Sequence record: PQ390715.1
Reading direction: 5' to 3' (one strand)
DNA: 64,000 nt
DNA from: Escherichia phage SHEFM2K
A program made the position numbers and the translations under genes. Under the pieces are notes generated by a model. That model was given only the letters and a program-made list of their open reading frames with translations. It did no database searches and was not told the DNA's origin. Shown one piece after another: positions 4,686 to 4,747 of this stretch; the first letter of the stretch is position 1; each line of letters begins with the position of its first letter.

Positions 4686-4747
4686 GTGATATAACCCTTT
4701 ACAATTAATATAAAGAGATTATATCACAAAGAATCGGAGGGTGTCAA
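4686..4747 (-). promoter_or_regulatory. sigma70-like promoter with 10-bp perfect inverted repeat (candidate operator)
   Basis: TTGACA (4747-4742) N18 TATAAT (4723-4718); tgtgatataa at 4686-4695 and ttatatcaca at 4719-4728 bracket -10 and transcription start. Confidence 0.45.

Follow-up and report, generated by a model that had tools for sequence, protein, structure and literature searches.

The junction at 4684–4747 of the window (the whole 64,000-nt stretch of DNA analysed here) raises the question of what a perfect inverted repeat is doing on top of a promoter. The first-pass annotation read the repeat as the operator of a dimeric repressor; below we ask how well that reading fits the sequence, its relatives and its predicted RNA, and which other readings fit better.

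Genomic setting

Positions 3000–7000 of the window match Escherichia phages vB_EcoM_G17 and Sharanji at 100% identity and 121Q at 99.2%, all of them Asteriusvirus jumbo myoviruses of ~350 kb that are distantly related to T4; gp17-, gp20-, gp23- and gp43-like genes mark the phage carrying the site as a distant T4 relative. Towards the other end of the window (49000–64000) the top match is phage E9.1 (86% of the query covered at 99.1% identity), and the matches listed do not include G17.

The genes surrounding the site all lie on the minus strand, co-directional and tightly packed head to tail, and all are annotated as hypothetical. The gene directly downstream of the repeat (4208–4684, 158 aa, function unassigned, phrog_12674) is the first in a series of eight overlapping or abutting genes that ends at a terminator at 886–905, and the upstream gene (4744–5280, minus strand, 178 aa) is its distant paralogue. 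Pfam searches with gene 4208–4684 and five neighbours gave no match, and PHROGs placed them in unknown-function families only. Between 11083 and 4747, a distance of more than 6 kb upstream of the site, the terminator scan predicted nothing on the minus strand. The UE-S1 record carries an annotated ribosome-binding site (RBS) in the same intergenic leader, ~10 nt 5' of the ATG, and our literature search found no promoter or transcript mapping for the genus Asteriusvirus. Elsewhere the window holds large tandem arrays of paralogues: one family has 25 genes of ~70 aa (24 in tandem at 22468–28226 and one at 7486–7677), another has seven plus-strand genes of ~380 aa at 53291–62984, annotated as RCC1-like in relatives, and a third has nine genes of ~60 aa at 48384–52758.

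One arm of the repeat is the -10 element of a promoter

The arms TGTGATATAA and TTATATCACA do form a perfect 10-bp inverted repeat, which occurs once in the window and is matched in 0 of 100 shuffles. The right arm lies at 4719–4728, as first annotated, while the left arm is at 4685–4694, one base off the 4686–4695 originally given, and the spacer is 24 nt rather than 23. The repeat is also longer than claimed: it comprises 11 bp (4684–4694 and 4719–4729) and belongs to an imperfect palindrome of 26 nt, of which it forms the outer part.

The TTGACA-N18-TATAAT promoter proposed for gene 4208–4684 on the minus strand stood up well, with a score of 12/12 (the top match of the first 20 kb), a TG at -15/-14 and hexamers conserved in relatives. 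Its -35 hexamer TTGACA (4742–4747, minus strand), which contains the TGA stop (4744–4746) of the upstream gene, is unchanged in 15 of 16 relatives and reads TTGACC in phage ph0011. The extended -10 TGTGATATAAT (4718–4728, minus strand), made up of TATAAT at 4718–4723 and a TGTGA extension at 4724–4728, is invariant in all 16. By contrast, about five of the 13 spacer positions ahead of TGTGA differ among the relatives, and this combination of conserved hexamers and a variable spacer supports a working promoter. The description of the surrounding block as promoter-poor is fair, with eight intergenic gaps of at least 35 nt in the first 28 kb.

What does not hold is that the arms flank the -10. 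The upstream arm takes in the TGTGA extension together with all but one base of the -10 hexamer, and the downstream arm (4685–4694), at about +18 to +27 relative to the start, runs directly up to the ATG (4684–4682) of gene 4208–4684. In the 121Q genome TGTGATATAA occurs ten times on the forward strand against 1.6 expected, nearly always just 5' of a gene start, and a T follows each time, giving TGTGATATAAT; TGTGATATAA/TGTGATATAAT marks a promoter class. Since all ten of these copies read TGTGATATAAT, the upstream arm is accounted for by the extended -10 consensus alone. For related jumbo phages, sigma70-like early promoters have been reported, along with a variant class at genes for DNA synthesis, whose -35 reads TGAAACG, and late promoters of the T4-like ATAAATA kind, with motifs at structural genes (PMC5259590).

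The repeat is predicted to fold into an RNA hairpin over the start of gene 4208–4684

The 24-nt spacer is itself self-complementary, and on the sense strand the 46 nt from 4729 to 4684 fold into a lower stem of 13 bp and an upper stem of 7 bp, separated by a bulged U and closed by a 5-nt loop. The lower stem has as its 5' strand UUGUGAUAUAAUC (13 nt, 4717–4729), which lies ahead of the predicted transcription start and would be present in read-through RNA only. It is followed by the bulged U (4716), the 5' strand of the upper stem CUUUAUA (4709–4715) and the loop UUAAU (4704–4708); promoter geometry places the start at ~4711, 7 nt past the -10 and inside this upper stem. The 3' strand, UGUAAAG plus GGUUAUAUCACAA (4684–4703), holds the left repeat arm together with the Shine-Dalgarno (SD) sequence AAAGGG (4695–4700) and the first base of the AUG (4684), both of which are thus inside the stem.

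The folding energy is -21.2 kcal/mol for the core and -23.7 kcal/mol with flanks (z = -5.5; 0 of 200 shuffles as stable), which ranks the hairpin 4th among 63,950 50-nt windows on both strands although it is AU-rich. Both the inverted repeat and the fold are far beyond chance. The antisense strand folds less well (-12.9 kcal/mol against -21.2) because two of the 20 pairs are G-U pairs, which become A-C mismatches on the other strand, and the sense fold is the stronger one in all six haplotypes described below (-16 to -21 against -8.6 to -15.5 kcal/mol).

We ranked 157 predicted gene starts by occlusion, each folded with 70 nt of upstream sequence. The initiation region of gene 4208–4684 came out as the most occluded of all, with a pairing probability of 0.97 over -13 to +3. 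Opening this region would cost 17.7–18.1 kcal/mol in read-through RNA, compared with 4.5–5.0 kcal/mol in transcripts starting at 4709–4713.

An intrinsic terminator was considered and rejected: the AU-rich stem is followed by UGUCCAAAGACC, there is no U-tract, and the terminator scan made no call at the site. An Rfam scan of 4300–5100 returned only sub-threshold matches to generic hairpins of the miRNA-precursor type (15.6–20.9 bits against gathering thresholds of 47–90.8).

Two other hairpins of the window deserve mention in their own right. The runner-up in occlusion (0.92) is gene 29793–29993 with its leader at 29994–30083, which has a similar layout in unrelated sequence. The -10/start region of its own promoter, ATAATGTTTTAC, pairs with GTAAAACATTAT, which is situated between SD and AUG, so that the -10 is again the 5' strand of a hairpin (ATAATGUUUUAC paired to GUAAAACAUUAU); opening costs 10.0 kcal/mol in read-through RNA and 4.4 kcal/mol in promoter-initiated RNA. 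The strongest hairpin in the window (-23.9 kcal/mol) is at 39947–39996, where CTTTATGCAGATAC-TTTGATA-TAGTGTCTGCATAGGG encloses a -10-like TGATATAGT in an intergenic gap.

Variation among close relatives

We compared the site in 16 genomes and two metagenome contigs, which fall into six haplotypes; the two contigs, from a metagenome scan for relatives of gene 4208–4684, both carry the phAPEC6 haplotype and added nothing, and an IMG/VR scan for its distant relatives returned 121Q only, likewise adding nothing. Sixteen of the 20 stem pairs never vary, one U-A pair becomes U-G through an A-to-G change in ph0011, and three pairs are broken in some genomes. The downstream arm is variable at three of its 11 positions. 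A T-to-A change in this arm, found in three of the six haplotypes, could be compensated at the free N of TGnTATAAT, but no such compensation is seen; in four T-to-A genomes a C takes the place of the bulged U and makes the upper stem stronger. Every variant retains the sense hairpin, at -16 to -19 kcal/mol or better. No compensatory double change was found among the 16 genomes (six haplotypes), and the comparison at this site is therefore uninformative, neither supporting nor refuting the structure.

A second copy of the repeat

The first-pass annotation had proposed a search of the complete genome for further copies of the arms, and one exists: 121Q carries a second exact copy at 44783–44816, TGTGATATAA-N14-TTATATCACA, which is identical in G17 (within 109888–110336) and was first traced by an IMG/VR scan. 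The repeat element is thus no one-off. The whole 121Q genome holds only these two exact arm pairs, where ~1.6e-4 would be expected from its size and composition. Like the first, the second copy begins within an extended -10. The promoter in question, TTGAAA-N18-TATAAT, overlaps with its -35 the last bases of the upstream gene and stands before gene 57, annotated as hypothetical, and gene 58, a GroES-like chaperonin. The stem of the second copy is weaker, with 10+5 bp and -11.9 kcal/mol, and its downstream arm ends 22 nt 5' of the AUG, leaving the start unmasked: opening costs 4.6 kcal/mol in read-through RNA and 5.2 kcal/mol in promoter-initiated RNA. Masking is therefore not the function common to both copies.

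The second copy lies within a conserved replication region, and more distant relatives are therefore available for comparison. Within Asteriusvirus generally the arms are retained and the spacer is altered; the stem of ph0011 has grown to 12 pairs through an insertion, and in fEgEco12 the outer pair is lost and inner G-U pairs are gained (-14.9 kcal/mol sense against -7.3 antisense). Erwinia phage Hallingskeid retains TGTGATA and TATCACA, placed 8 nt apart instead of 20. In Eneladusvirus-like phages the -10 extension reads TGGTATA and is followed by TATACCA (Serratia phage BF), TATACTA (Yersinia) or TACC(A/T). A RaK2-like contig has a different hairpin, upstream of the -10 and just past the stop codon, and in four other contigs the promoter is absent at the junction. 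These sequences are suggestive of complementarity that tends to track the promoter sequence with free spacing, which would fit a hairpin better than a fixed protein site, though the stems of the distant homologues are short (4–7 bp).

Pairing between a -10 and the sequence downstream of it is no general rule in 121Q, since its enrichment is weak: among 394 promoter-like sites, stems of at least 8 bp were observed at 8, compared with 3.9 expected. IMG/VR also holds ~19 unrelated contigs with the same repeat, several of them with the same promoter-to-ATG layout; this number is close to a rough chance expectation for AT-rich phage DNA, and we do not count it as evidence.

A model of translational gating

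The best reading of the repeat, to which we give a probability of about 0.45, is translational gating by a promoter-embedded hairpin, of the kind found at the T4 genes e, soc and I-TevI. Computation supplied the hairpin with its rank, the occlusion of the start and the conservation of the promoter; where transcription starts, that upstream transcripts read through, and what this does to translation we infer. Transcripts begun upstream would read through gene 4744–5280 into the DNA encoding the hairpin, as we expect from the dense co-directional genes and the lack of a predicted terminator between 11083 and 4747. In such read-through RNA the hairpin would bury the SD and the first AUG base of gene 4208–4684, and ribosomes would be unable to initiate there independently. 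The sigma70-type promoter, in turn, would lie within the DNA that encodes the 5' strand and start transcription at ~4711 in the upper stem, so that the promoter-initiated mRNA would come without the 5' strand and with an open initiation region. Expression of gene 4208–4684, and probably of translationally linked genes downstream, would then be tied to its own promoter. The hairpin most likely acts on RNA and can exist only in transcripts begun upstream, in which, on the predicted energies, initiation at the start codon of gene 4208–4684 should seldom occur independently.

In phage T4, the genes e, soc, 49, I-TevI and segB, and in phage Aeh1 mobE, have a promoter inside an RBS-sequestering hairpin; the DNA for the 5' strand contains the promoter, so RNA started there is missing this strand and is open to translation (PMC3014915, PMC2988022). 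The site described here resembles these cases in three ways: the RBS is buried in a stable hairpin in silico, a 12/12 promoter has its -10 in the 5' strand with a start predicted by geometry at ~4711, and the gene lies within a longer co-directional, predicted transcription unit. It differs in that the promoter is of the sigma70 type (TTGACA-N18-TGnTATAAT) and not a gp55 late promoter (TATAAATA), and in that the gene has no assigned function and is neither a lysis nor a homing-endonuclease gene. The late-promoter class is a feature of the T4 examples and not of the gating mechanism, but with a sigma70-type promoter in its place the temporal logic may be reversed or different. A further comparison is seg43(25) of Aeromonas phage 25, where a stable hairpin just 5' of the RBS does not sequester it (PMC2988022). 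The second copy at 121Q 44783 is similar in being a hairpin upstream of the RBS that leaves it unmasked; no promoter -10 has been reported within the seg43(25) hairpin, in contrast to ours.

Our confidence in gating is limited by the second copy, which does not mask, by relatives in which broken pairs go uncompensated, by the weak genome-wide pairing, and by distances between the repeat cores that are near whole helical turns (see below). The masking could be a by-product of fitting a hairpin into a 59-nt gap. Moreover, the upstream UGA is 14 nt ahead of the stem, and ribosomes that finish translation there might melt the hairpin; the outcome would then be coupling rather than a block. The function shared by the two copies, if there is any, may be RNA processing or stabilisation just past the upstream stop, or that of an operator.

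Alternative explanations

The strongest competitor, which we regard as a real though rather unlikely possibility, is that the hairpin was selected for RNA processing or stability, as an RNase III target or a protective stem at a 3' end, with the promoter overlapping it because the gap is short and the masking incidental. RNase III processing hairpins are found between phage genes, for example in the T7 early region and in the lambda N leader, and RNase III substrates are ~20 bp long. The present hairpin is similarly an intercistronic, bulged stem of ~20 bp in a polycistronic phage transcript, without a U-tract; with 20 bp and one bulge it spans about two helical turns of dsRNA, as RNase III-type substrates do. 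It differs from them in that the stem overlaps a promoter, and it matches no curated RNA family. Processing would explain why the second promoter has a hairpin built from the same arms over an unmasked start, and why both hairpins begin 8–14 nt past the stop codon of the upstream gene. It would also agree with the different hairpin of the RaK2-like homologue, immediately past a stop codon, and with the TGTGATATAAT promoters at 121Q 10457 and 261804, which have GC-rich terminator hairpins in an equivalent position. Against it, the missing U-tract leaves no intrinsic terminator, the stem of the second copy is just 10+5 bp at -11.9 kcal/mol, and, whatever it is for, a stem of -21 kcal/mol that covers both SD and AUG would prevent independent initiation.

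An operator, the original proposal, we consider improbable. A phage or host protein bound to the TGTGATATAA half-sites would repress or clamp a few promoters, and dimeric helix-turn-helix repressors such as lambda cI, Cro and LacI do bind palindromic operators. The inverted half-sites lie over the core promoter, as at such operators. The constant spacing expected of an operator across sites and relatives is not seen, and the operator is less likely than an RNA hairpin. The geometry, which had been called typical, is in fact atypical for operators, with 34 bp from centre to centre. The arms are 24 nt apart here and 14 nt apart at the second copy, and the 7-bp cores are 8 nt apart in the Erwinia homologue, a variation that a rigid dimer would not tolerate. 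The core distances of N8 (Erwinia phage), N20 and N30 differ by 12 and 10 bp, roughly helical turns, which would favour a protein on DNA as far as three points can (a weak pattern); a possible fourth site at 121Q 298206, N26 on the core scale, is off phase. Also in favour of an operator are the two exact 10-mer pairs at otherwise unrelated promoters of one 350-kb genome, against the ~1.6e-4 expected, and the perfect match at the second copy, which ends at the identical 10-mer. On the other hand, the upstream half-site cannot be told apart from the extended -10 consensus, natural isolates often carry mutated half-sites, among them the uncompensated T-to-A change in the downstream arm of three of the six haplotypes, and complementarity continues through the spacers, with G-U pairs usable on the sense strand only. 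In the Eneladusvirus-like homologues, TGGTATA is followed by a matching TATACCA or TACC, so that it is the complementarity and not the sequence that tracks. Finally, the published annotation of Sharanji lists no repressor gene.

The arms also contain the pentamers TGTGA and TCACA of CRP sites, which read TGTGA-N6-TCACA or, rarely, have N8. A CRP site was rejected at this locus, as the pentamers are 34 bp apart (24 bp at the second copy), the spacing is variable and the spacer is base-paired. Separately, the TGTGATATAAT promoters at 121Q 191053 and 274147 carry TGTGA-TATAATGT-TCACATC, that is, TGTGA-N8-TCACA centred on the -10. This motif could be a CRP-like N8 site, or it could be nothing but the TTnACATC start-site consensus of the phage promoters.

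With identical arms, TGTGATATAA and TTATATCACA, at two unrelated promoters (N24 and N14) and re-spaced in an Erwinia jumbo phage, one could think of a small regulon of TGTGATATAAT-class promoters with an uncharacterised factor, or of hairpins that generally insulate promoter modules from read-through; we see either as a long shot worth keeping in mind. Such a factor might bind DNA and accommodate arm spacings that change in steps of roughly one helical turn, or it might bind RNA, recognising UAUCACA in 5' leaders.

Structure at the level of DNA appears very unlikely to us. The AT-rich palindrome might be extruded by supercoiling as a cruciform that switches the promoter off, or its downstream arm, TGTGATATAAC, might serve as a decoy or convergent extended -10. 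The site folds as single-stranded DNA at -10.1 kcal/mol (z = -7.6), the downstream arm of the second copy in ph0011 reads as a full TGTGATATAAT on the opposite strand, and there is a weak promoter-like match on the plus strand at 4678–4705. In a cruciform, however, the second arm would have A-C mismatches where the first has G-T, and the antisense strand folds far less stably. A convergent promoter in the other arm is unlikely because its -10 lacks the critical final T at both sites of this genome.

That the palindrome arose by chance from an AT-rich -10 region and an AT-rich leader is scarcely credible: TATAAT-like and leader sequences are of low complexity and the ~19 unrelated IMG/VR contigs agree with a composition-based prediction for that database, but 0 of 100 and 0 of 200 shuffles, the rank of 4th among 63,950 windows and the second exact copy in the genome all speak against it.

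Other repeats and sequence biases

Inverted repeats of another kind are far more frequent in this DNA. The window has 64 copies of the palindrome CAGTACTG where 0.65 would be expected (for example at 4348, 28575 and 40375–40424), and 121Q has 194 where 3.4 would be. AGTACT, by far the most over-represented palindromic hexamer, is present in coding and intergenic DNA, 274 times in the window (21.6 expected) and 903 times in 121Q (118 expected); a search for literature on this motif found no relevant paper. Between 28000 and 48000, many sigma70-like promoters of small genes have AGTACT inverted repeats around the -35, such as CAGTACTATTGACA....TTGATAGTACTG. These repeats, for example at 40375–40424, 30342–30417, 37495–37577 and 44951–45000, are among the strongest hairpins of the window and look more operator-like than the repeat at 4685–4728. 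Conversely, CCCGGG, CCATGG, CAGCTG, AGGCCT and AGCGCT are each absent from 121Q where 8–31 copies would be expected, consistent with restriction-site avoidance.

Nine sites at 30018–43267 (for example 31543–31569 and 37811–37837) share a leader module directly past early-type promoters, in which TACATC(A/G)AG is followed by a hairpin clamped by G/C pairs (GGGGAGAA...TTCTCCCC); the module probably forms a stem-loop at the 5' terminus of the mRNA. Finally, a run of nine C on the plus strand at 13564–13572 (nine or ten G on the coding strand), in a 58-nt intergenic gap and adjoining a TTGACA, could be a slippage-prone tract.

Implications

The gating device is already known from phage T4, and the present site would be a tidy example of it rather than a new principle. 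As a caution for annotation, a palindrome that overlies a promoter need not be an operator: the two arms at this site are the promoter itself and the ribosome-binding region. If translational gating is the correct reading, a jumbo coliphage with ~600 mostly uncharacterised genes would use the hidden-start device of T4, bypassed solely by the gene's own promoter, and would do so with a host-type sigma70 promoter in place of the late one. Gating would also give a handle on how long, packed arrays of accessory genes may be split into separately controlled units.
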